Assembly: GCA_036523465.1 (NCBI GenBank) | Contig: DATDEG010000318.1 | Span: 1-35,631 of the forward strand | Direction of reading: 5' to 3' | From: a bacterium | Lineage (GTDB): Bacteria > Sysuimicrobiota > Sysuimicrobiia > Sysuimicrobiales > Kaftiobacteriaceae | Length of the DNA: 35,631 bases | In this document: positions 2,197 through 15,011 of the stretch, one piece after another | Layout: every line of letters begins with the position of its first letter | How positions within the stretch are numbered: position 1 is the first letter of the stretch | Notes under the pieces: generated by a model | Told to the model about the DNA's origin: nothing | The model's database searches: none | The model's input: the letters and a program-made list of their open reading frames with translations, nothing else | Position numbers and translations under genes: made by a program

Positions 2197-3234
2197 ATGG
2201 GATACGTCGAGACGCGCGCGTTGCAGAAGTACTTCGGAGATGTCCATGCCGTAGACGGAGTGGACCTCGAAGTCACGGAGGGAGAACTCCTCGTCCTGCT
2301 GGGGCCTTCCGGCTGCGGCAAGACCACCCTGATGCGCATGATCGCCGGGCTGGAGACGCCGACCGCCGGCGAGATCTCCATCGCGGGGCAGCGCGTGGAC
2401 GAGGGTGTCCCTCCCCGGGCCCGCGGCATCGCCATGGTCTTCCAGAGTTACGCCCTCTACCCGCACAAGACGGCCTACCGGAACATCGCCTTCCCGCTGG
2501 AGGCTTCGGGCCAGCCGTCGGAGGCGGTGAAGGAGAAGGTCCGCACGGGGGCGCGGAGGTTCGGACTGGAGCGGCTGCTCGGGCGGTTTCCACGGCAGCT
2601 GTCCGGAGGAGAGCGCCAGCGGGTCGCCCTGGCCCGCGCCGTGGTTCGTGATCCGCGGGTCTTCCTCTTCGACGAGCCGTTGAGCAACCTCGACGCCCAA
2701 CTGCGGGCCATCGCCCGATACGAGCTCAAGGAGTTCCAGCGCCAGCTCGGCACCACCACGATCTACGTGACCCATGATCAGGTTGAGGCGATGGGGCTCG
2801 GCGACCGCATCGCCGTGATGGAGAAGGGAAGGATCCGCCAGATCGGCACGCCGCAGGACGTCTACGAGAATCCGGCCGACACGTTTGTGGCGACGTTCCT
2901 TGGATCCCCACCGATGAATCTCGTCGAGCACGACGAGAACACGCTCATCGGATTCCGACCCGAGCATCTCCTCCCGAAGTCGACCTATCCCTCGGCGGAG
3001 ACCGTCGTTACCTATCACCTCCGCGTGCGACAAGTGGAACACCTCGGAGCGGATCGCCTGATCTACGGCTCTCTCGAAGAGGAGACCCGGTCCGACCAGC
3101 CTGTTATCGCCTCCCTGCCCGTGACGATCCCTCAGCCGATCACGGAACGACAAGTCTACGAGTTCGCGGTCCCCCGGCGGGCGATGCGCTACTTCGACCG
3201 CCGTACCGGCCTGAGGCGCGATGGCGCTGCCTAA
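2197..3234 (+). CDS. ABC transporter ATP-binding protein, MalK/UgpC/MsmX family
   Basis: Walker A GPSGCGKTT, signature LSGGERQRVALARA, Walker B FLFDEPLSNLD, H-loop YVTHD, plus a C-terminal regulatory (TOBE-like) extension. Confidence 0.9.
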   Translation: MGYVETRALQKYFGDVHAVDGVDLEVTEGELLVLLGPSGCGKTTLMRMIAGLETPTAGEISIAGQRVDEGVPPRARGIAMVFQSYALYPHKTAYRNIAFPLEASGQPSEAVKEKVRTGARRFGLERLLGRFPRQLSGGERQRVALARAVVRDPRVFLFDEPLSNLDAQLRAIARYELKEFQRQLGTTTIYVTHDQVEAMGLGDRIAVMEKGRIRQIGTPQDVYENPADTFVATFLGSPPMNLVEHDENTLIGFRPEHLLPKSTYPSAETVVTYHLRVRQVEHLGADRLIYGSLEEETRSDQPVIASLPVTIPQPITERQVYEFAVPRRAMRYFDRRTGLRRDGAA

Positions 3235-4165
3235 GAGCGCGCCGGCCGTCGTCCAGGCGCGGGCCGCGGTGTTCTCCCGGGCCACGCTGGCCGATTCGGA
3301 GAGCGTGCTCGGCCGGCTTCTCCTCGCCCCTGCCAGCCTCTATGTTGCGCTCCTCGTCGGGATCCCGTTTGTCATGGCGATCTTGCTCAGTTTCAGCGGG
3401 GCGCGATCGGGAACGCTGGCGTTTGATTGGGTGGGGCTGCGCCACTTCCGGACCATCATCACAGACCCGCAGTTCCTGCTGACGCTCCGGAACACGCTGA
3501 TCTTCACGGTCGGCTCGCAACTGCTCGTCATGTTCCTCGCCACGACCGCGGCGAACGTGCTTGAAGCCTCCTTCTTCGGGAAACGCGCGCTGCGGATGCT
3601 CCTTCTCCTCCCGTGGGCTGTGCCGGTCTCGCTGGCCACGATGGCCTGGGCGTGGATCTTCGACTCGACCTTCAGCGTCATCAACTGGACGCTGCGGGAC
3701 ATGGGTCTGCTCCACGGTTGGATCTATTGGCTCGGCGATCCCGAGCTGGCCATGGCCGCGATCATCATCATCCACGTCTGGCGCATGTTTCCCTTCGCGA
3801 CGGTCGTCTTGCTCGCCGGGTTGACCTCGATTCCGGTGGAGATCCGCGAGGCCGCGGTCATCGACGGCGCCTCGTTCTGGCGCCGCCTCTTTCAGGTGAA
3901 TCTGCCGCTCCTCCTCCCGGTCGTGACGGTAGCGGTCTTGTTCGGCATGGTCTTCACGTCGACGGACCTCAGCGTCGTCTACCTGTTGACCCGCGGTGGA
4001 CCCTACAACAGCACCCACGTCCTCGCCAGCCTCGCGTTCCAGCGCGGCATCCTTGGAGGCGATCTGGGCGAGGGAGCGGCGATCGCGCTATTCCTCCTCC
4101 CTGTGCTCGTGGTCGTGGCCATGGGGATGCTGCGGCTGGCGCGGCGGGCGGAGGTGGGGGCATGA
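3221..4165 (+). CDS. ABC transporter permease (MalF/UgpA-like)
   Basis: 314-aa polytopic membrane protein with an EAA-type loop (IREAAVIDGASFWRRLFQVNLP). It overlaps the upstream ATPase gene. Confidence 0.85.
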   Translation: MALPKSAPAVVQARAAVFSRATLADSESVLGRLLLAPASLYVALLVGIPFVMAILLSFSGARSGTLAFDWVGLRHFRTIITDPQFLLTLRNTLIFTVGSQLLVMFLATTAANVLEASFFGKRALRMLLLLPWAVPVSLATMAWAWIFDSTFSVINWTLRDMGLLHGWIYWLGDPELAMAAIIIIHVWRMFPFATVVLLAGLTSIPVEIREAAVIDGASFWRRLFQVNLPLLLPVVTVAVLFGMVFTSTDLSVVYLLTRGGPYNSTHVLASLAFQRGILGGDLGEGAAIALFLLPVLVVVAMGMLRLARRAEVGA

Positions 4166-4205: not shown

Positions 4206-5069
4206 ATGAGGGCGCGCCGGCGGACGGTGCTCGTCCTGAAGCGGGTCGCCCTCTACGCGGCGGCGCTCGGCTTCACGGTCCTCGCCGTGTTCCCGTTCTA
4301 CTGGATGATCATCACGGCGTTCAAGCGTGACAGCGACCTGTATGTGGGCGCAACGGTGCGGTCGCACATTCCCTGGATCTTCAATGAGCCGCCGACCCTC
4401 GAGCACTTCCGTTACCTGCTCACGGAGACGGCGTATCTTACCTGGGTGCAGAATACCGTCATCGTTGGCGCGGCGGTCGTGGCGATCACGCTGGTGCTGG
4501 CGGTGCCCGCCGGGTACGCGCTTGCCCGGCTGACCGGACGCTGGGGGGAGCGTCTGGGTATCGCGATCTTCCTCACCTATCTCGTCCCGCCAACGCTCCT
4601 GTTCATTCCGTTCTCCCGCGTTATCGCCGTCCTTGGGCTGCAGAACTCGCTCTGGGCGCTTGTGGTCGTCTACCCCACGTTCACGATCCCGTTCTGCACC
4701 TGGCTGCTCATGGGGTTCTTCCGCTCCATCCCCCGCGACATCGAGGAACAGGCGATGATCGACGGGTACAGCCGGCTGAGCGCGATGCGCCTGGTCGTCC
4801 TGCCGCTCGCGATCTCCGGTGTGCTTACCTCGGCCTTCTTCTCCTTCACCCTCGTCATGCAGGACTTCGTCTATGCCCTGACCTTCATCAGCTCGGTCGG
4901 CAAGATGACCGTCAGCCTGGGAATCCCGGTGGCGTTGTTCCGGGACGTCTTCAACTGGGGAGCGATGATGGCCGCGGCGCTGATCACGAGCGTGCCGATC
5001 GCCATCATCTACAACCTGTTCATCGACCGGTTCATCGCGGGGCTGACCGCGGGCGCGGTGAAAGGGTAG
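4206..5069 (+). CDS. ABC transporter permease (MalG/UgpE-like)
   Basis: The track ORF 3996..5069 is trimmed to the first in-frame ATG after the end of permease 1 (MRARRRTVLVLKRVALYAAALGF...). EAA loop: DIEEQAMIDGYSRLSAMRLVVLP. Confidence 0.85.
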   Translation: MRARRRTVLVLKRVALYAAALGFTVLAVFPFYWMIITAFKRDSDLYVGATVRSHIPWIFNEPPTLEHFRYLLTETAYLTWVQNTVIVGAAVVAITLVLAVPAGYALARLTGRWGERLGIAIFLTYLVPPTLLFIPFSRVIAVLGLQNSLWALVVVYPTFTIPFCTWLLMGFFRSIPRDIEEQAMIDGYSRLSAMRLVVLPLAISGVLTSAFFSFTLVMQDFVYALTFISSVGKMTVSLGIPVALFRDVFNWGAMMAAALITSVPIAIIYNLFIDRFIAGLTAGAVKG

Positions 5070-5813
5070 GTGGACACCCCGGTCATCGACGTCACGGAGC
5101 TGACGAAGCGGTTCGAGCAGACGGCGGCCGTCGACGGGATCTCGTTCCAGGTCTATCGTGGGGAATTGCTCGGCTTCCTGGGACCCAACGGCGCCGGCAA
5201 GACGACCACGATCGCCATGCTCCTCGGGCTCGTCGCTCCCACTGCCGGCACGGTGCGCATCCTCGGGGAGCCGATGCCCCAGCGCCGGCATGCTATCCTC
5301 GCACGGGTCAACTTCTCGTCGCCCTACGTCGCCCTGCCGTATGACCTGACGGTCCGGGAAAACCTCACGGTGTTCGCCCACCTCTACAGTCTCGCCGACG
5401 CCCGGACGAAGATCGCCGAGCTCACCGAGCAGTTCGGGGTTGCCCGCTTCCTTGACCGTCGCACCGGAGCGCTTTCCTCCGGGGAGACCGCGCGGGTGAA
5501 CCTTGTCAAGGCGTTCCTCAACGACCCCGACGTACTGTTCCTCGACGAGCCTACCGCCGCGCTCGACCCGGAGGCGGCCGATACCGTCCGCTCGCTGCTC
5601 CTGCGCCTCGGACGCGAGCGCGGGCTGACGATCTTCTACACCTCCCACAACATGCGCGAGGTGGAGCGATTGAGCAGCCGGATCATCTTCCTGCACCACG
5701 GCCGGATCATCGCCGACGGGCCGGCGGCGGACGTGGTGCGCGAGTACGGGAAGGCAGATCTCGAGGAGTTCTTCGTTGCTCTGGCGCGGTCCGAGCAGGA
5801 GCCACCGGCGTGA
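5070..5813 (+). CDS. ABC-2 type exporter ATP-binding protein
   Basis: GTG start directly after the preceding TAG. Walker A GPNGAGKTT, signature LSSGETARVNL, Walker B LFLDEPTAALD. Confidence 0.85.
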   Translation: MDTPVIDVTELTKRFEQTAAVDGISFQVYRGELLGFLGPNGAGKTTTIAMLLGLVAPTAGTVRILGEPMPQRRHAILARVNFSSPYVALPYDLTVRENLTVFAHLYSLADARTKIAELTEQFGVARFLDRRTGALSSGETARVNLVKAFLNDPDVLFLDEPTAALDPEAADTVRSLLLRLGRERGLTIFYTSHNMREVERLSSRIIFLHHGRIIADGPAADVVREYGKADLEEFFVALARSEQEPPA

Positions 5814-10125: not shown

Positions 10126-10524
10126 ATGTGGCAGAGGCTCGACGTTTCCTCGTCCCGCCGCGTCGAGATCGTCGACATCACGCCGGAGGTCACGGCGGTC
10201 TGCGAACGGACCTCCGTCCGTGACGGCCTCCTGGTGATCGTGTGCGCGCACACGACCGCCGGACTGATCGTCAATGAAGCCGAACCGCACCTACTCGACG
10301 ACCTCCGCGCCTGGCTGGAGCGCGCCGTACCCCACGCCGGTCCGTACGCGCACAACCGCACCGACGACAATGCCGACGCGCACCTTCGGGCCATTCTGCT
10401 TGGACACAGTGTCTGTCTGGTCGTGGAGAGCGGGGGGCCCGTGCTCGGGACGTGGCAGCGGATCCTGATGGTCGAGCTCGACGGGCCGCGGCGGCGAACG
10501 CTGCGGGTCGGGGTGTGGTCCTAA
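10126..10524 (+). CDS. yjbQ: YjbQ/UPF0047 family protein (secondary thiamine-phosphate synthase enzyme family)
   Basis: 132 aa. Characteristic blocks HTTAGLIVNE, DNADAHLRA and LGTWQRI. Confidence 0.85.
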   Translation: MWQRLDVSSSRRVEIVDITPEVTAVCERTSVRDGLLVIVCAHTTAGLIVNEAEPHLLDDLRAWLERAVPHAGPYAHNRTDDNADAHLRAILLGHSVCLVVESGGPVLGTWQRILMVELDGPRRRTLRVGVWS

Positions 10525-10573
10525 GGATCTACCCTTCGTGGGAACTGAGGGGGGACGCAGGCGCAGCGTTCCT

Positions 10574-10822
10574 TCAGACGCTCCCCGCCGCGGACATGAC
10601 GACCGCGCAGGTGTTCACCTTGGTTACGCCTTCGATGCGCTGGACCGCGGATGCCACCGCCGGGAAACCCTTCGTACTCTCCAGTTCGACGAGGGCGATG
10701 ACGTCGAACTCCCCCATCGTCACGTAGGCCTCTCTGACACCATCGATCTTGCGCACCTCGCGCGCGACCGCTGCGGGCGTGCTGCGGTCGAGCGAGATGA
10801 GGAGAAATGCGGTTTCGGTCAT
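10574..10822 (-). CDS. stand-alone Lrp/AsnC ligand-binding (RAM) domain protein
   Basis: The track ORF 10574..10969 is trimmed to the internal ATG at 10822. The 82-aa product is MTETAFLLISLDRSTPAAVAREVRKIDGVREAYVTMGEFDVIALVELES..., which is the RAM-domain pattern. No HTH is present. Confidence 0.7.
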   Translation of the reverse strand: MTETAFLLISLDRSTPAAVAREVRKIDGVREAYVTMGEFDVIALVELESTKGFPAVASAVQRIEGVTKVNTCAVVMSAAGSV

Positions 10823-10840
10823 GGAATCAGGGATTCCATG

Positions 10841-10869
10841 TTGACAGAAGGAACGCCTGTTCCTACGAT
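10841..10869 (+). promoter_or_regulatory. sigma-70-like promoter TTGACA-17 nt-TACGAT for the FMN-riboswitch operon
   Basis: Read directly: TTGACA 10841-10846 and TACGAT 10864-10869. It is positioned ~25 nt upstream of the riboswitch P1 helix. Confidence 0.5.
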
Positions 10870-10892
10870 AGCGACCAGCAGGACCGATGGCC

Positions 10893-11040
10893 CGCAGTCC
10901 TCTGGGGCAGGGTGCGACGGCCGCAGGGCCGTCAATTCCCGATCGGCGGTGACAGCCCGTGAGGTCCACGCTGTGGCGTGGATCATGGCCCGGCGGAATT
11001 CCGGGGTCGACGGTACAGTCCGTATGAGATGAGGACGGCG
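10893..11040 (+). promoter_or_regulatory. FMN riboswitch (RFN element) aptamer
   Basis: The conserved RFN blocks occur in order: GGGGCAGGGUG, AAUUCCCGAUCGGCGGU, AGCCCGUGA, a GCGUGGAUC hairpin, GGCGGAAUUCC, and GUCGACGGUACAGUCCGUAUGAGAUGAGGAC. P1 pairs 10893-10902 with 11031-11040 (one mismatch). It lies upstream of a riboflavin-type ECF S-component. Confidence 0.8.
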
Positions 11041-11065
11041 GAATTAGGCGCCTGAGCGCCCCTAG

Positions 11066-11098
11066 GACGCCCGGATCGGGCGTCTTTCCTTTTTCTCC
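11066..11098 (+). terminator. intrinsic terminator forming the FMN riboswitch expression platform
   Basis: GACGCCCG-GAT-CGGGCGTC followed by TTTCCTTTTTCT. It lies 33 nt before the start codon at 11131. Confidence 0.7.
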
Positions 11099-11130
11099 CC
11101 GACCGGGACGCCATCATCAGGAGGTCGATC

Positions 11131-11649
11131 ATGAGGCCACGGGATCTCGCAGCGGCAGCGGTGTTCATCGCCCTGACGTTTGTCGTCACACGCTTCACGG
11201 TCATCCCCATCCCCGCGACGAAAGGGTACTTCAACTTGGGCGAGGTGGTGATCTACATCGCCGCGCTCGTATTCGGCCCGGTGGTCGGCGCCCTCGCCGG
11301 CGGCCTCGGCGCGGCGCTGGCTGACTATTTGGCCGCGCCGCAATTTGCCCCGTTCACGCTCGTCATCAAAGGAATCGAAGGGTTGCTGGTTGGACTACTC
11401 GCCGGCACGACAACGGCGTCGCGTCTGCGCGCGCTGCTCGTTGGGGGTCTCTGGCTGGTCGCCGGATACTTCGGTGCTGAGGTCCTCTTTGCCGGTCCGC
11501 TCGGTATCGCGCCCACGCCTGCCGCGGCGGTCGCCGCGGCGTCGACGGAAGTGCCGTTCAACGTCATCCAGGCGGTGGTCGGAATCCTCGTCGCGTTGGC
11601 GGTCGCAGCCCGTCTCCGCGCGCTGGCTCCCCAGCGGCTTCGTCCATGA
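11131..11649 (+). CDS. ribU: ECF transporter S-component, riboflavin-type (RibU-like)
   Basis: 172-aa polytopic protein. The motif GYFNLGEVVIYIAALVFGPVVGALAGGLGAALADYL...FTLVIKGIEG is typical of the ECF-type riboflavin S-component family. RBS CAGGAGG. It sits directly downstream of the FMN riboswitch. The symbol rests on that context. Confidence 0.7.
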   Translation: MRPRDLAAAAVFIALTFVVTRFTVIPIPATKGYFNLGEVVIYIAALVFGPVVGALAGGLGAALADYLAAPQFAPFTLVIKGIEGLLVGLLAGTTTASRLRALLVGGLWLVAGYFGAEVLFAGPLGIAPTPAAAVAAASTEVPFNVIQAVVGILVALAVAARLRALAPQRLRP

Positions 11650-12641
11650 GGGCGGGGAAGGTCTCTGCTGAGCTGCTCCAGCGGCTCGTCTATCCGCATC
11701 TCGGCCACCGGCCTGACGTGCTGGTCCACGCGCACCTCGGCCTGGATTGCGCAGCGATCGATTTCGGCGAGTGGACCGCGGTGTTGACGACCGATCCGAT
11801 CACGGGGGCGGGACGGCATCTAGGCCGCTATGCGGTTCACGTCGCGTGCAACGACCTGGCTACGACCGGGGCCGAGCCCGTGGCGCTGCTCCTCACCTTG
11901 CTGCTGCAGGAAGGATCGGCCCCCGATGACGTCGAGGTGATCATGCGGGAAGCGGGAGCGGCGGCCGCGGGACTGAAGGTGGAGATTGTCGGCGGCCACA
12001 CGGAAGTGACGCCCGGTATCGATCACAACATCGCGGTCATGACCGCGCTCGGCCGTGCCCGGAAAGGTACATTGATCTCTGCTGCCGGCGGGCGACCCGG
12101 TGACGCAGTTCTCTTGACGAAGACCGCCGGGCTGGAGGGTACCGCTATCCTGGCGATCGATCTGGATGAAGACTTGCGCACCCGGCTGGACGGCGCCGTG
12201 GTCGAGCGGGCCCGGGCGTTCCTGGACCGGATCAGCGTCGTGCCCGAAGGGATGGCCGCCGCGCGGGCGGGAGCGTCCGCGATGCACGACGTCACCGAAG
12301 GGGGAGTTCTGGGCGGCGCCTGGGAACTCGCGGAGGCCTCGGGGATCGGCATCGAGCTCCGGGCTGAGGCGATCCCAATCGCCCCGGAAACGCAGGCGAT
12401 CTGCGCTGTCCTCAGGCTCGATCCGCTGCGCCTGATCAGCAGCGGCGCGATGTTGATCGCCGCCCCTGATTCGGCGGCGGTGCTGGGTGCGCTGGCCGAC
12501 GCGCGGATCCCCGCCGCTGTGATCGGCACGATGACGGCGCAGTCACGGCTCCTGCGTCGCGGCGGGCAGGTGGAAGCGCTGCAGCCGCCCGAACGCGACG
12601 AGTTGTGGCGTGCCCTCGCCGCCCGGCCGGCAGTCTCCTAG
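11646..12641 (+). CDS. AIR synthase-related protein (PurM/ThiL/HypE/SelD superfamily), function unknown
   Basis: 331 aa. HypE-like N-terminus GKVSAELLQRLV..., then LDCAAIDF...LTTDP...ACNDLATTGAEP...VGGHTEV and an AIRS_C-like C-terminal half. It lacks the C-terminal Cys motif of HypE. ATGA overlap with the ribU-like gene. Confidence 0.8.
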   Translation: MRAGKVSAELLQRLVYPHLGHRPDVLVHAHLGLDCAAIDFGEWTAVLTTDPITGAGRHLGRYAVHVACNDLATTGAEPVALLLTLLLQEGSAPDDVEVIMREAGAAAAGLKVEIVGGHTEVTPGIDHNIAVMTALGRARKGTLISAAGGRPGDAVLLTKTAGLEGTAILAIDLDEDLRTRLDGAVVERARAFLDRISVVPEGMAAARAGASAMHDVTEGGVLGGAWELAEASGIGIELRAEAIPIAPETQAICAVLRLDPLRLISSGAMLIAAPDSAAVLGALADARIPAAVIGTMTAQSRLLRRGGQVEALQPPERDELWRALAARPAVS

Positions 12642-12652
12642 GTGCGAAGTCG

Positions 12653-12682
12653 TTGCGCGGCGGGGCGGCGCTCGGGTAGGAT
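12653..12682 (+). promoter_or_regulatory. possible promoter TTGCGC-18 nt-TAGGAT upstream of the TPP riboswitch
   Basis: Read directly. The match to consensus is weak, and only the position fits. Confidence 0.25.
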
Positions 12683-12699
12683 GAGTACGTACGAAACCG

Positions 12700-12810
12700 C
12701 ATAGCAAGACAGGGGGAGCTCGGGAGAGCCGGGCTGAGAGTGCGACCGGACCGTCGCAGACCCGTTGGACCCGATCCAGGTAATGCTGGCGTGGGGACGC
12801 TTGGGAGGTC
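12700..12810 (+). promoter_or_regulatory. TPP (THI-box) riboswitch
   Basis: GGGGGAGC...GGGCUGAGAG...ACCCGUUGGACCCGAUCCAGGUAAUGCUGGCGUGGGGAC matches the conserved TPP aptamer core (GGGGUGC / CUGAGA / ACCUGAUCUGGAUAAUGCCAGCGUAGGGA). It lies upstream of thiT. Confidence 0.85.
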
Positions 12811-12889
12811 CAGGGCCGCCGGCGCCGATCGGGCGCGGCGGCTCGTCGCGTCTGTGGAGAAGTTATCGAAGGAGAGAGGGGACAGAGAG

Positions 12890-13438
12890 ATGGCCGTTAT
12901 CGCTGGCCGGGAGGGCTTGAGCAATCCGAGGACGATCGCCGAGATCGCCGTCGCCATCGCGCTGGCATCGGTCCTCCATCTCATCAAGCTCTGGGAGATG
13001 CCGCAGGGCGGATCGATCACCTTGGGCACGATGGTGCCCTTGTTCGTGCTCGCACTGCGCCGGGGACCCTTTGTGGGGATGATGGCGGGGGGGCTGTACG
13101 GGATCTTCGAGGGATGGATACTCAGCGGCGGCCGGTTCTTCGTCCACCCGGTCCAGGTGATCTTGGACTATCCACTGGCCTTCGCGCTCCTGGGGCTCGC
13201 CGGGTTCTTCCCCCGCTATCCCGCCTTTGGCGTCACGCTCGCCGCCGTGGCCAGGTATCTTGCGCACGTCGTCTCGGGCGCGGTGTTCTTCGCGCAGTAC
13301 GCACCGAAGGGACAGCCGATCTGGCTGTACTCGCTTGGCTACAACATCACATTCCTCGGTCCCGACTTTGCTCTGGCCATCGTCCTGACACTCCTGGTCT
13401 GGGAGCGGCTCTCGAGGATGTCCGCTCAGACGGCGTAG
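12890..13438 (+). CDS. thiT: energy-coupling-factor thiamine transporter S-component ThiT
   Basis: The track ORF is trimmed to ATG 12890, after the GAAGGAGAGAGGGG RBS. Blocks LRRGP, ILDYPLAF, FFAQYAPKG and YSLGYN match the ThiT (YuaJ) family. It lies downstream of the TPP riboswitch. Confidence 0.8.
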   Translation: MAVIAGREGLSNPRTIAEIAVAIALASVLHLIKLWEMPQGGSITLGTMVPLFVLALRRGPFVGMMAGGLYGIFEGWILSGGRFFVHPVQVILDYPLAFALLGLAGFFPRYPAFGVTLAAVARYLAHVVSGAVFFAQYAPKGQPIWLYSLGYNITFLGPDFALAIVLTLLVWERLSRMSAQTA

Positions 13439-13440
13439 CC

Positions 13441-14124
13441 TTGCGGCATTCCACCGTCATTCGGACCGCGGCGATCATCGCCGGCGGCCGCCTGCGGGCC
13501 TTCTCGGACCTCGGCGCGCTGCTGCGCGGCGTAGATCTGCTCATCTGCGCTGATGGCGGACTCCGCGCGGCCCGGTCGCTCCGGATCCGCCCCCACGTCG
13601 CGATTGGCGACTTCGATTCCGCGTCACCCGCGCTCTTGCGGTGGGCCGCCCGGTCCGGAACCCGCATCATCACTCATCCCACGGAGAAGGACAAGACGGA
13701 TACGGAGCTTGCCCTGGACTTCGCCGCGGCGGCGGGAGCGCGCACGGTCGACTTTCTGGGCGCACTCGGCGGGCGCCTCGACCACGAGCTGGCGAACGTT
13801 GCCCTGCTGCTCCGGGCGAAGACGGCGGGAGTCACGATGCGCATCAGGGACGGCGGCACGATGGGCTGCCTCGCCGCGCGTCGCACCGCGCTCTCAGCCC
13901 GGATCGGAGATGTGGTCTCCCTTCTTCCGCTGTCCCGCCGTGTGACAGGTGTCTCTACGTCCGGGCTACGATATCCTCTGCACCGGGCCACGCTATCCGA
14001 GGGGAGCACGCTGGGAGTGAGCAATGTCGTCACCGCATCTCGCCCCGTGATCCGGGTGGGGACCGGCGACCTCCTCATCATCGTCTCCGCCGCTGCGGGA
14101 ACAGGGCGGAAACTCCGTTCGTAG
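13441..14124 (+). CDS. thiN: thiamine pyrophosphokinase
   Basis: The track ORF 13114..14124 is trimmed to TTG 13441, right after the thiT stop. TPK blocks are present: AAIIAGG, LLICADGG, AIGDFDS, EKDKTDTELAL, GALGGRLDHELAN, and a C-terminal thiamine-binding domain. Confidence 0.8.
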   Translation: MRHSTVIRTAAIIAGGRLRAFSDLGALLRGVDLLICADGGLRAARSLRIRPHVAIGDFDSASPALLRWAARSGTRIITHPTEKDKTDTELALDFAAAAGARTVDFLGALGGRLDHELANVALLLRAKTAGVTMRIRDGGTMGCLAARRTALSARIGDVVSLLPLSRRVTGVSTSGLRYPLHRATLSEGSTLGVSNVVTASRPVIRVGTGDLLIIVSAAAGTGRKLRS

Positions 14125-14126
14125 GT

Positions 14127-15011
14127 GTGGTTGTGCAGGACTACTGGATCCGCTCCGTCACCGGCGACGGCACGGTCCGCGCCGTCGCAGCCGTGACCAC
14201 CCACGCCGTGGACCAGGCGCGGCGTCGTCACGCCACAGCCCCAACCGCCACCGCCGCCCTCGGCCGGACGCTCACCGCCGCCGGATTGCTCGGGTCGACC
14301 TTGAAGGACCGCCAGACGGTCATGGTCCGGGTACTCGGAGATGGCCCGCTCGGCGGTGCGCTGGCGATGAGCGATGCGTCAGGGGGCATCCGCGGATACG
14401 TCATGAACCCGGACGTCCATCTCCCGCTGACCCCCACGGGGAAGCTGGACGTTGGTGCCGCGGTGGGACGCGGGACCCTCCACGTCACGACGGACGTGGG
14501 GCTGAGAGTGCCCTATCACGGCAGCGTACCGCTGGTGTCCGGGGAGATCGGCGAAGACCTCGCATCCTACCTCGTGAGTTCGCAGCAGGTGCCGTCTGTG
14601 GTCGCGCTGGGTGTGCTGGTCTCGCCCGACGAGCGCGTCCTCGCTGCCGGCGGCCTCATCGTGCAGGTGCTCCCCGGGGCAGACGAGGGTGTGACGGACT
14701 ACCTGGACAGGCGTGCCCGTCTGCTTCCCACCGTCACCTCGCTGATCAGCAGCGGACGGACGCCGGAAGAGATCGTGGAGGAGGCGCTCGGCGAGCTATC
14801 CTGCCGTATTGTCGCGCGGCATCCGGTCCGCTTCCGGTGCCGATGCACGACCCAAAAGGTCCGGGACGTCCTCGTGGCGCTTGGGGAGCAAGAGATGCGC
14901 GCTCTGCTGGAGGAGCGAGGAAGCATCGAAGTCCGGTGCAACTTCTGCGGACGGCGCTACGAGTTCGGTGAAGATGATGTGGATGCCATATTTGCCAGGG
15001 ATAGGGGATAG
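14127..15011 (+). CDS. hslO: redox-regulated chaperone Hsp33
   Basis: The 456-aa track ORF is trimmed to GTG 14127. Blocks TATAALGRTLTAAGLL and VPSVVALGVLV, plus the C-terminal zinc centre CRC...CNFCG. Confidence 0.9.
   Translation: MVVQDYWIRSVTGDGTVRAVAAVTTHAVDQARRRHATAPTATAALGRTLTAAGLLGSTLKDRQTVMVRVLGDGPLGGALAMSDASGGIRGYVMNPDVHLPLTPTGKLDVGAAVGRGTLHVTTDVGLRVPYHGSVPLVSGEIGEDLASYLVSSQQVPSVVALGVLVSPDERVLAAGGLIVQVLPGADEGVTDYLDRRARLLPTVTSLISSGRTPEEIVEEALGELSCRIVARHPVRFRCRCTTQKVRDVLVALGEQEMRALLEERGSIEVRCNFCGRRYEFGEDDVDAIFARDRG

Follow-up and report, generated by a model that had tools for sequence, protein, structure and literature searches.

A putative FMN riboswitch operon pairing a COG4720-type S-component with an orphan PurM-superfamily enzyme in Candidatus Sysuimicrobiota

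The stretch of DNA examined here, positions 1-35,631 of contig DATDEG010000318.1 (assembly GCA_036523465.1; hereafter the window, on which all window coordinates are given), carries a two-gene operon behind a leader that matches the flavin mononucleotide (FMN) riboswitch. The first gene encodes a 172-aa S-component of the energy-coupling factor (ECF) type, a class of membrane proteins that capture a substrate, and the second a 331-aa enzyme of the PurM superfamily (Table 1). The stop codon of the S gene and the start codon of the enzyme gene share the four nucleotides ATGA. The initial annotation of this DNA had considered that a signal inside the operon might uncouple the two genes, and no internal promoter or terminator was detected there.

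Table 1. Predicted features of the FMN-controlled operon
Feature	Position	Strand	Evidence
Promoter-like site, sigma-70-like, TTGACA-17 nt-TACGAT	10841..10869	+	10/12 hexamer matches
RFN element (aptamer of the FMN riboswitch) with helices P1-P6, of which P2 and P4 are extended by hairpins	10893..11040	+	
Small GC hairpin GGCGC-CUGA-GCGCC between P1 and terminator	11047..11060	+	centroid structure
Intrinsic-terminator-like expression platform, 10-bp stem AGGACGCCCG/CGGGCGUCUU, then U-rich tract	11064..11098	+	
Shine-Dalgarno AGGAGG, 6 nt 5' of the S-component ATG (11131)	11119..11124	+	
S-component gene, 172 aa, COG4720/PF07155 (PdxU/HmpT)	11131..11649	+	PF07155 121.8 bits
Orphan PurM-superfamily (AIRS + AIRS_C) enzyme gene, 331 aa	11646..12641	+	AIRS 60.2, AIRS_C 87.3 bits

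The promoter-like site is the only one within 10500-14300 (0.3 are expected from shuffles), and it sits in a divergent intergenic region, adjoining a small minus-strand open reading frame (ORF; 10574-10822). The initial annotation had proposed this promoter, a P1 helix formed by 10893-10902 with 11031-11040, a GC hairpin with a T-tract terminator, and the overlap of the two genes at 11646-11649. All four are borne out on the sequence, with 9 of the 10 P1 positions pairing and with a terminator-like hairpin at 11064-11086 (10 bp, 7 of them GC, followed by TCCTTTTTCT) that is kept in relatives.

The proposal of an FMN riboswitch likewise stands. The covariance model RF00050 matches positions 10894-11039 on the plus strand over its full length (model positions 1-138), and the 70.9 bits reached (E 2.6e-14) exceed the gathering score of 66.2. 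Two related loci, L003 (70.6 bits) and L006 (72.3 bits), also pass. A custom covariance model built from the window element and these two relatives recovers 22 further aptamers when run on 160 related loci. Six of those aptamers score 43-62 bits under Rfam's own model (E between 1e-6 and 1e-11); large insertions in P2, P4 or P6 keep them under its gathering score. In an alignment of ten aptamers, pairing holds in 96.6% of the cells and compensatory changes occur in 18 pairs, values that none of 500 shuffles reaches, while slid controls pair 35-58%. P1, the P2 extension and P4 covary across these ten aptamers, and the core junction nucleotides are invariant.

The ligand contacts of FMN riboswitches include guanosines that contact ribityl and phosphate groups as well as adenosines that contact the flavin, and substitutions of G to A define variant, non-FMN subtypes (PMC6298564). 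When the window element is compared with that account, the contact residues are retained: G10, G11, G32, G62 and G84 for the ribityl and phosphate, and A48, A85 and A99 for the flavin, in a mapping to 3F2Q numbering of our own that was made from the Rfam alignment and the ten aligned aptamers. Across those ten, the J1/2 GGGG, CGG, GA, J4/5 G, GAC and AUG blocks are invariant, with zero G-to-A changes. A variant FMN riboswitch of altered specificity (PMC6298564) was therefore considered and rejected, since the G residues that contact phosphate and ribityl are intact. On its sequence, the leader element is a canonical FMN aptamer.

Downstream of the aptamer, the small GC hairpin at 11047-11060 is kept in all 21 FMN-positive loci that were folded, as is the GGACGCCC...GGGCGUC hairpin with its U tract ahead of a GGAGG site; GGAGG-type sites occur at the same position in relatives. 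From this conserved hairpin and U tract ahead of the ribosome-binding site, the best reading of the leader is a predicted OFF switch that acts by transcription termination. Together with the overlap of the two genes, these signals predict FMN control and co-expression of both genes.

Some aptamers of this group are unusually large. Very large insertions are found in L013:3065-3393, L097:301-653, L095:2576-2847, L096:2567-2847, L098:2619-2826 and L020:3152-3310. An additional, long hairpin sits just 5' of the P6 3'-strand/J6-1 block in L020, L095, L096 and L098, and for L013 and L097 the match spans of 329 and 353 nt show that an insertion exists. RF00050 gives 53.3 bits on L013 and 43.3 bits on L020, both under the gathering score, and standard annotation probably misses such insertion-bearing aptamers.

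The product of the first gene matches PF07155 with 121.8 bits against a cutoff of 26.7. An AlphaFold2 model of the protein (pLDDT 94) shows the six-helix fold of S-components, and the top 23 Foldseek matches are all S-components, including HmpT, TmRibU, BioY, ThiT and FolT. The initial annotation of the gene as a 172-aa ECF S-component is thus confirmed. An AxxxA motif in the first helix of S-components serves in docking on EcfT. In the window protein this motif is A10-x3-A14, which aligns with A13-x3-A17 of 4HZU_S, and A14 is invariant in an alignment of 13 S sequences and at least 90% conserved in one of 44.

The cargo of this S-component is less easily assigned. The gene had been described as RibU-like and riboflavin-type, a label that rests on the Pfam name only and is not upheld by more specific models: the RibU equivalog (NCBIfam NF010182, COG3601) scores 27.4 bits against a cutoff of 99, and the protein passes no other S-component equivalog in NCBIfam either. 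The sole match among PDB sequences is 4HZU_S, the Lactobacillus brevis HmpT/PdxU2 (E 1e-16 in a single-sequence search, 107 bits when a family profile is used), while Staphylococcus aureus RibU (3P5N) reaches only 19 bits with the family profile. On these grounds an orthodox RibU was rejected. PF07155 maps to COG4720, and the members described for that group are the vitamin B6 transporters PdxU and PdxU2/HmpT (PMC9997740); RibU proper belongs to COG3601 (PMC5397151). In structure, HmpT is the best match by E-value, and the riboflavin-binding Thermotoga maritima RibU, second in the list, is the best by TM-score (0.81, at 18% identity). The conserved pocket residues of HmpT are E41, H84, Q87, Y120, N140 and Q143 (PMC4860826); the corresponding residues in the window protein are E38, K80, E83, Y113, N144 and Q147. 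Four of the six are kept (E38, Y113, N144 and Q147); in the other two, H84 gives way to K80 and Q87 to E83. K80 and E83 form a 'KG.EG' signature that is invariant in every enzyme-linked S protein and in the archaeal relatives, and because of this invariant change in the pocket the cargo specificity need not equal that of HmpT. The protein is therefore placed, on its sequence, as an ECF-type S-component of a distinct COG4720 subfamily, whose cargo is not readable from sequence alone.

The Pfam name of PF07155, 'ECF-type riboflavin transporter, S component', is misleading for proteins of the COG4720 type, and automated 'riboflavin transporter' calls made from it deserve caution. This naming matters for predictions of vitamin auxotrophy from metagenome-assembled genomes in uncultured phyla.

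The second gene encodes a protein with both PurM-superfamily domains (AIRS, 60.2 bits against a cutoff of 24; AIRS_C, 87.3 bits against 23.1). As the initial annotation had it, this is a 331-aa PurM-superfamily protein outside the characterised families, since no equivalog is passed: hypE (TIGR02124) scores 109.9 against 251.6 bits, thiL (TIGR01379) 91.5 against 184.15, selD 75.2 against 125, and purM 23 against 236. Sequence matches in the PDB are weak, the best being HypE at 1e-21. In the AlphaFold2 model (pLDDT 94.3), the nearest folds found by Foldseek are HypE (TM-score ~0.8, 27% identity), then ThiL (~0.7), SelD and PurM. The protein ends in ...ARPAVS and its last Cys is residue 253, in agreement with the earlier remark that the C-terminal Cys motif of HypE is missing.

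Over 98 diverse members of the family, the invariant residues include G4, K5, D34, D50, N69, D70, GGH (116-118), E120, H214, D215, TEGG (217-220) and C253. The Asp and His motifs of the catalytic type seen in the superfamily are thus intact, and G4-K5 and C253 are invariants specific to this family. The family itself is large, with 6287 matches at E up to 1e-10 among clusters at 90% identity and 827 clusters at 50% identity at E up to 1e-30, and in the source databases its members are labelled only as 'AIR synthase family protein' or, wrongly, as 'HypE'. From these sequence comparisons, the enzyme is a member of a large orphan family of the PurM superfamily that belongs to no characterised family.

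That the enzyme is instead a divergent HypE, ThiL, SelD or PurM doing the known job of its family is very improbable and was rejected: hypE (110 bits) and thiL (91.5 bits) are its best NCBIfam matches and HypE (TM-score 0.8) and ThiL its nearest solved folds, but every equivalog cutoff is missed by a wide margin, the C-terminal Cys on which HypE chemistry depends is absent, and a genuine ThiL coexists with the orthologous gene in two relatives. In those relatives, L016 and L021, the true ThiL (291.6 and 289.7 bits) lies a few kb 3' of the orthologous enzyme gene, beside ThiE, and the enzyme family is therefore not ThiL. As the initial annotation had also noted, no hydrogenase, selenium or purine gene is seen in the window, and neither these nor flavin genes (RibF) nor the CbiQ/EcfT family are among the matches listed, which cover 25 of the 45 Pfam families of the window. 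The two ABC_tran genes of the window adjoin BPD_transp_1 permeases and a solute-binding protein.

No fusion of the S and enzyme domains was found among 150 representatives of the enzyme family. The only fusions seen, P0248/P0205, join an NYN_YacP nuclease domain to AIRS/AIRS_C (493 aa) and AIRS/AIRS_C to a Ham1 non-canonical NTP pyrophosphatase (530 aa); these two are candidates that may be real or may be artefacts of gene calling.

The pairing of the S gene with the enzyme gene was followed in two scans. One, seeded with the enzyme and limited to one genome per GTDB species, gave 80 loci from Sysuimicrobiota (CSP1-3, with many carrying the label Armatimonadota), Chloroflexota, Clostridia and Sumerlaeota. 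In 24-25 of these the S gene is the immediate 5' neighbour of the enzyme gene; they come from Sysuimicrobiota/'Armatimonadota' and from a clade of Thermoanaerobacterales, Lutispora and Tepidanaerobacter. The other scan, seeded with the S-component in metagenomes, added 80 loci, 77 of which have enough sequence 3' of the S gene to be judged. In 20 of the 77 the enzyme gene is directly downstream and in 3 it is convergent, archaeal-type contexts included, and in 57 the S gene stands alone. These S-only loci are mostly archaeal-looking, with Nitrososphaerota and Bathyarchaeia among the names they carry and NucS, RIO kinase and TYW3 next to the S gene. Of 45 S-enzyme pairs, an overlap of 4 or 1 nt is seen in 21 and a gap of 5-30 nt in 16. 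In a tree of the enzyme, pairs appear in at least four separate places with different flanking genes, namely Sysuimicrobiota, the Clostridial clade (9 of 10), L062 and a deep archaeal-type group (5 of 5). Recurrence in separate parts of the tree with different flanks marks the two genes as a functionally coupled module, which is old and has been conserved in several phyla.

Apart from the S gene, no informative conserved neighbour of the enzyme was found across the 80 loci. The neighbours seen include DegT, GFO, LigA, a family-B DNA polymerase (DNA_pol_B), LUD/CCG, SerRS, FeoB, NUDIX and an amidase with GerM. The enzyme family has one other recurrent and apparently coupled partner, an HAD-IA hydrolase. 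Its gene is downstream of the enzyme gene and overlapped by it in five Chloroflexota loci, L046, L049, L052, L064 and L071 (in L052, 4001-4999 and 4989-5684). In plants, riboflavin kinase is fused to an HAD-type FMN hydrolase; by analogy, the overlap in the five Chloroflexota loci gives a weak hint of a role in flavin metabolism.

Genes for the S-component also occur in settings of their own. In L084-L092, S genes 68-81% identical to that of the window stand alone, with neither riboswitch nor enzyme gene. Where the upstream sequence exists it holds a divergent ABC transporter of the amino-acid type, and a tRNA gene lies 3' of the S gene in six of them (L084, L085, L087, L088, L090 and L092). 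In L088, the locus analysed most closely, the S gene (2893-3519) is followed by a DUF488 gene, the tRNA (4034-4105) and a phage-type integrase (4206-5351, minus strand), an order that suggests an integration hotspot. In 18 archaeal-type contigs, probably from Nitrososphaerota, the S gene directly follows that of CTP synthase (pyrG), with transketolase and transaldolase upstream and NucS downstream (L110, L119, L124-L128, L135-L137, L140, L142-L144, L146, L147, L149 and L151). Another group of S genes lies between hemC-cobA/hemD and a TYW3-like gene.

FMN aptamers are found at 23 loci including the window, each of them 5' of an S-enzyme pair. None precedes the 55 enzyme-only loci or the 57 S-only loci, S genes 78-81% identical to that of the window included; of those 57, only about 9 belong to closely related bacteria, the remainder being archaeal-looking. 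Within the FMN-positive clade the S proteins diverge down to ~45% identity, and the riboswitch, the terminator and the gene overlap all persist, which indicates sustained selection. For the FMN-negative S-enzyme pairs, no other riboswitch was found 5' of the genes at E up to 0.05; the Clostridial loci show only a divergent T-box, which belongs to SerRS.

The reading that is tentatively favoured here, at a confidence just short of probable, is that of an FMN-controlled operon whose S-component imports a flavin and whose enzyme activates and traps the flavin with ATP. At high FMN, the aptamer would be stabilised, the terminator would form and the operon would be off, whereas both proteins would be made when FMN is scarce. 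The S-component would then take up a flavin, most likely riboflavin, and in the cytoplasm the enzyme would spend ATP on phosphorylating the compound brought in, or on activating it in some other way. Such activation would trap the compound, which would then be committed to cofactor synthesis. The operon 60 nt downstream follows the same logic; there, a thiamine pyrophosphate (TPP) riboswitch (12702-12814, 59.6 bits) precedes genes for ThiT (TIGR02357, 136 bits against a cutoff of 108) and ThiN (TIGR01378, 158 bits against 76), as had been proposed at the outset. The intact motifs of the PurM superfamily, the confident fold model and the TM-score of 0.81 to TmRibU also count in favour. By analogy with the thiamine operon, a role of the enzyme on the imported flavin is plausible.

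Several observations weigh against this reading. By sequence the S-component is a relative of HmpT/PdxU2 and not a RibU, and S homologues 78-81% identical to the window protein occur with neither enzyme gene nor riboswitch. The initial annotation had tied its proposal to the linkage of enzyme orthologues with flavin genes in other genomes, and here the outcome is mixed. The enzyme is repeatedly paired with an S gene across phyla and falls in no clade of known function, but in 55 of the 80 species loci neither an S gene nor a riboswitch adjoins the enzyme gene and the contexts are heterogeneous. FMN control is confined to a single monophyletic clade within Candidatus Sysuimicrobiota (CSP1-3), and the FMN-positive loci therefore represent one evolutionary event, one retained acquisition; in sister clades and in Clostridia the S-enzyme pair has no known riboswitch. 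In S-less relatives the enzyme gene occupies the same slot (DegT-GFO-...-enzyme-ThiT-ThiN-Hsp33-RecG), so that the S gene and riboswitch could be an insertion before a housekeeping gene. In the leader, no convincing alternative pairing that could act as an antiterminator was found, and the terminator formed in every fold tried. Bacteria normally already have RibF. Finally, it is by analogy that we infer a flavin as the substrate of the S-component and of the enzyme.

One rival explanation, which we regard as unlikely, keeps the transport and activation module and changes its cargo. The S-component would carry a B6 vitamer (pyridoxal or pyridoxamine) or hydroxymethylpyrimidine (HMP), the pyrimidine of thiamine, the enzyme would be a novel kinase, and FMN control would reach across pathways, for example because PdxH needs FMN. 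The only clear relative of the S-component with a solved structure, HmpT/PdxU2 (4HZU_S, 107 bits with the profile), points this way, and pyridoxamine is a reported substrate of HmpT/PdxU2 (PMC4860826). COG4720 holds both PdxU and PdxU2/HmpT, and alternative B6 kinases are still to be found (PMC9997740). An FMN riboswitch is reported to precede the pyridoxal phosphate (PLP) synthase genes yaaDE in Thermaerobacter (PMC4418817), thiamine genes lie on both sides of the window operon (YjbQ upstream and TPP-ThiT-ThiN downstream), and most S-enzyme pairs lack the FMN riboswitch. However, the two pocket residues that differ from HmpT (H84 to K80 and Q87 to E83) are invariant in the subfamily, the FMN contacts of the leader are canonical, and riboswitches overwhelmingly govern genes tied to the ligand they sense or to precursors of that ligand. 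For pyridoxamine or pyridoxine, an OFF switch by which B6 import rises at low FMN would also have no evident logic, since both need the FMN enzyme PdxH, and no TPP or other non-FMN riboswitch was found before any S-enzyme pair.

A second rival, to which we give a similarly small chance, separates the two genes. The enzyme would be a housekeeping member of the PurM superfamily that sits as a passenger behind a riboswitch-plus-S cassette, with no relation to the cargo of the S-component, and FMN control would matter for the transporter only. The main argument for it is the position of the enzyme gene in the S-less relatives, which hold it in the same place of a conserved housekeeping block. It is also consistent with the size of the family (827 clusters at 50% identity), which mostly lacks an adjoining S gene. 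Its neighbours and fusion partners outside vitamin metabolism (LigA, HAD hydrolase, DNA_pol_B, NYN/YacP and Ham1), the restriction of the FMN association to one clade, and the near-identical S genes that stand alone fit as well. Yet S-enzyme adjacency with differing flanks, recurring at no fewer than four distinct places of the enzyme tree, and spacing typical of translational coupling both argue against a passenger, as does the absence of an FMN aptamer before the enzyme-less S genes (~9 of the 57 S-only loci being close bacterial relatives and the rest archaeal-looking).

Returning to the operon as a putative flavin uptake and activation unit, a close regulatory counterpart is the FMN riboswitch-ribU (ypaA/fmnP) unit of Firmicutes. 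Both have an RFN aptamer and a terminator before the gene of an ECF S-component, with uptake expected to be off at high FMN. Unlike those units, the window operon encodes an S-component of COG4720/PF07155 rather than COG3601, and adds a translationally coupled PurM-superfamily enzyme gene that is absent from two surveys of FMN regulons (PMC4418817, PMC3766115). The TPP-thiT-thiN operon resembles it in the order of riboswitch, ECF S-component and overlapping gene for an ATP-dependent enzyme, ThiN making the cofactor form of the imported vitamin. ThiN is a thiamine pyrophosphokinase with a proven substrate, whereas the window enzyme has an unrelated PurM-type fold and a function proposed by analogy. 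Metabolic trapping by PnuC with NadR, or by PnuT/ThiT with thiamine pyrophosphokinase, also couples a carrier gene to the gene of a cytoplasmic ATP-dependent enzyme, and serves, by analogy only, as the working model of the module.

At the level of the single proteins, L. brevis HmpT/PdxU2 (4HZU_S) is ~35-40% identical to the S-component and agrees with it in the S-component fold, in the AxxxA motif and in four of the six pocket residues (E, Y, N and Q). It differs in having H84/Q87 in place of K80/E83, and neither an FMN riboswitch nor a PurM-like partner has been reported for it. HypE acts in hydrogenase maturation, where it dehydrates a carbamoyl group to a thiocyanate, and its C-terminal Cys carries the carbamoyl/cyano group. 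It offers the nearest solved fold and the best family score for the enzyme and shares the ATP-binding motifs of the PurM superfamily, but the carrier motif with its C-terminal Cys is missing from the window enzyme, and neither hyp nor hydrogenase genes are seen nearby among the Pfam families listed for the window. ThiL, the thiamine-monophosphate kinase, is a PurM-superfamily vitamin kinase acting on a small molecule and is similar in size and fold (TM-score ~0.7), but the enzyme reaches 91.5 bits against the ThiL cutoff of 184, and its orthologous gene coexists with a true ThiL in L016 and L021.

Surveys of FMN regulons describe rib genes, transporters and a few oddities such as PLP synthase and a carbohydrate kinase (PMC4418817, PMC3766115). 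Neither an AIRS-family enzyme nor a COG4720 S-component is listed in these two surveys (PMC4418817, PMC3766115), a full-text literature search for AIR synthase paired with an FMN riboswitch or ECF returned no papers, and the papers on CSP1-3 do not mention riboflavin. A COG4720 S-component and an orphan PurM enzyme as a conserved pair under a predicted FMN riboswitch therefore appear to be new, with no report in the searched literature. FMN regulons are regarded as fully mapped, as rib biosynthesis plus transporters, and a conserved enzyme under a canonical FMN riboswitch is a lead to a missing or alternative step of flavin or B-vitamin salvage. It also opens a first route to the function of a large orphan branch within the PurM superfamily, whose clusters at 50% identity number in the hundreds and come from Clostridia, Chloroflexota, Sysuimicrobiota, Sumerlaeota and archaeal-type contigs. 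A bolder proposal, which is doubtful at present, is that this family constitutes a new class of ATP-dependent vitamin-activating enzymes (a non-RibF riboflavin kinase, or the maker of an undescribed phosphorylated or modified flavin) with a COG4720 S-component as obligate partner, in a 'capture and trap' uptake module that would extend from Sysuimicrobiota and Clostridia to archaea.

The operon lies in a housekeeping block. In order, the window holds sugar ABC transporters, an SRPBCC protein, DegT, GFO, YjbQ, the small divergent RAM-domain-like ORF, the FMN-S-enzyme operon, TPP-ThiT-ThiN, Hsp33, RecG, RsmD, CoaD, PlsX-Fab-ACP and RNase III. YjbQ/UPF0047 (10126-10524, plus strand), named 'secondary thiamine-phosphate synthase enzyme', matches TIGR00149 with 133.8 bits against a cutoff of 67.75. 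With YjbQ upstream and TPP-ThiT-ThiN downstream, two thiamine-related units flank the FMN operon. The minus-strand ORF at 10574-10822 (~82 aa) has a weak likeness (31.6 bits) to the C-terminal, ligand-binding part of Lrp/LysM-type regulators and resembles a stand-alone RAM domain. Small minus-strand ORFs that cluster together occupy the same position in the FMN-positive metagenome loci L083, L089, L096, L098 and L159, a comparison made among those loci.

The order FMN-S-enzyme-TPP-ThiT-ThiN is kept in nearly all FMN-positive relatives. In the region 12642-14124 of the window, no terminator-like or promoter-like site was detected between the enzyme gene and the TPP riboswitch, and transcripts of the FMN operon may therefore read into TPP-thiT-thiN. 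In L016:5556-8359 and L021:7175-8170, the slot of TPP-ThiT-ThiN is taken by a long ThiE-domain ORF (L016) and a bona fide ThiL, and in L016 a TPP riboswitch precedes the ThiE/ThiL genes. At this one locus, biosynthesis and salvage genes appear to have been exchanged for each other.

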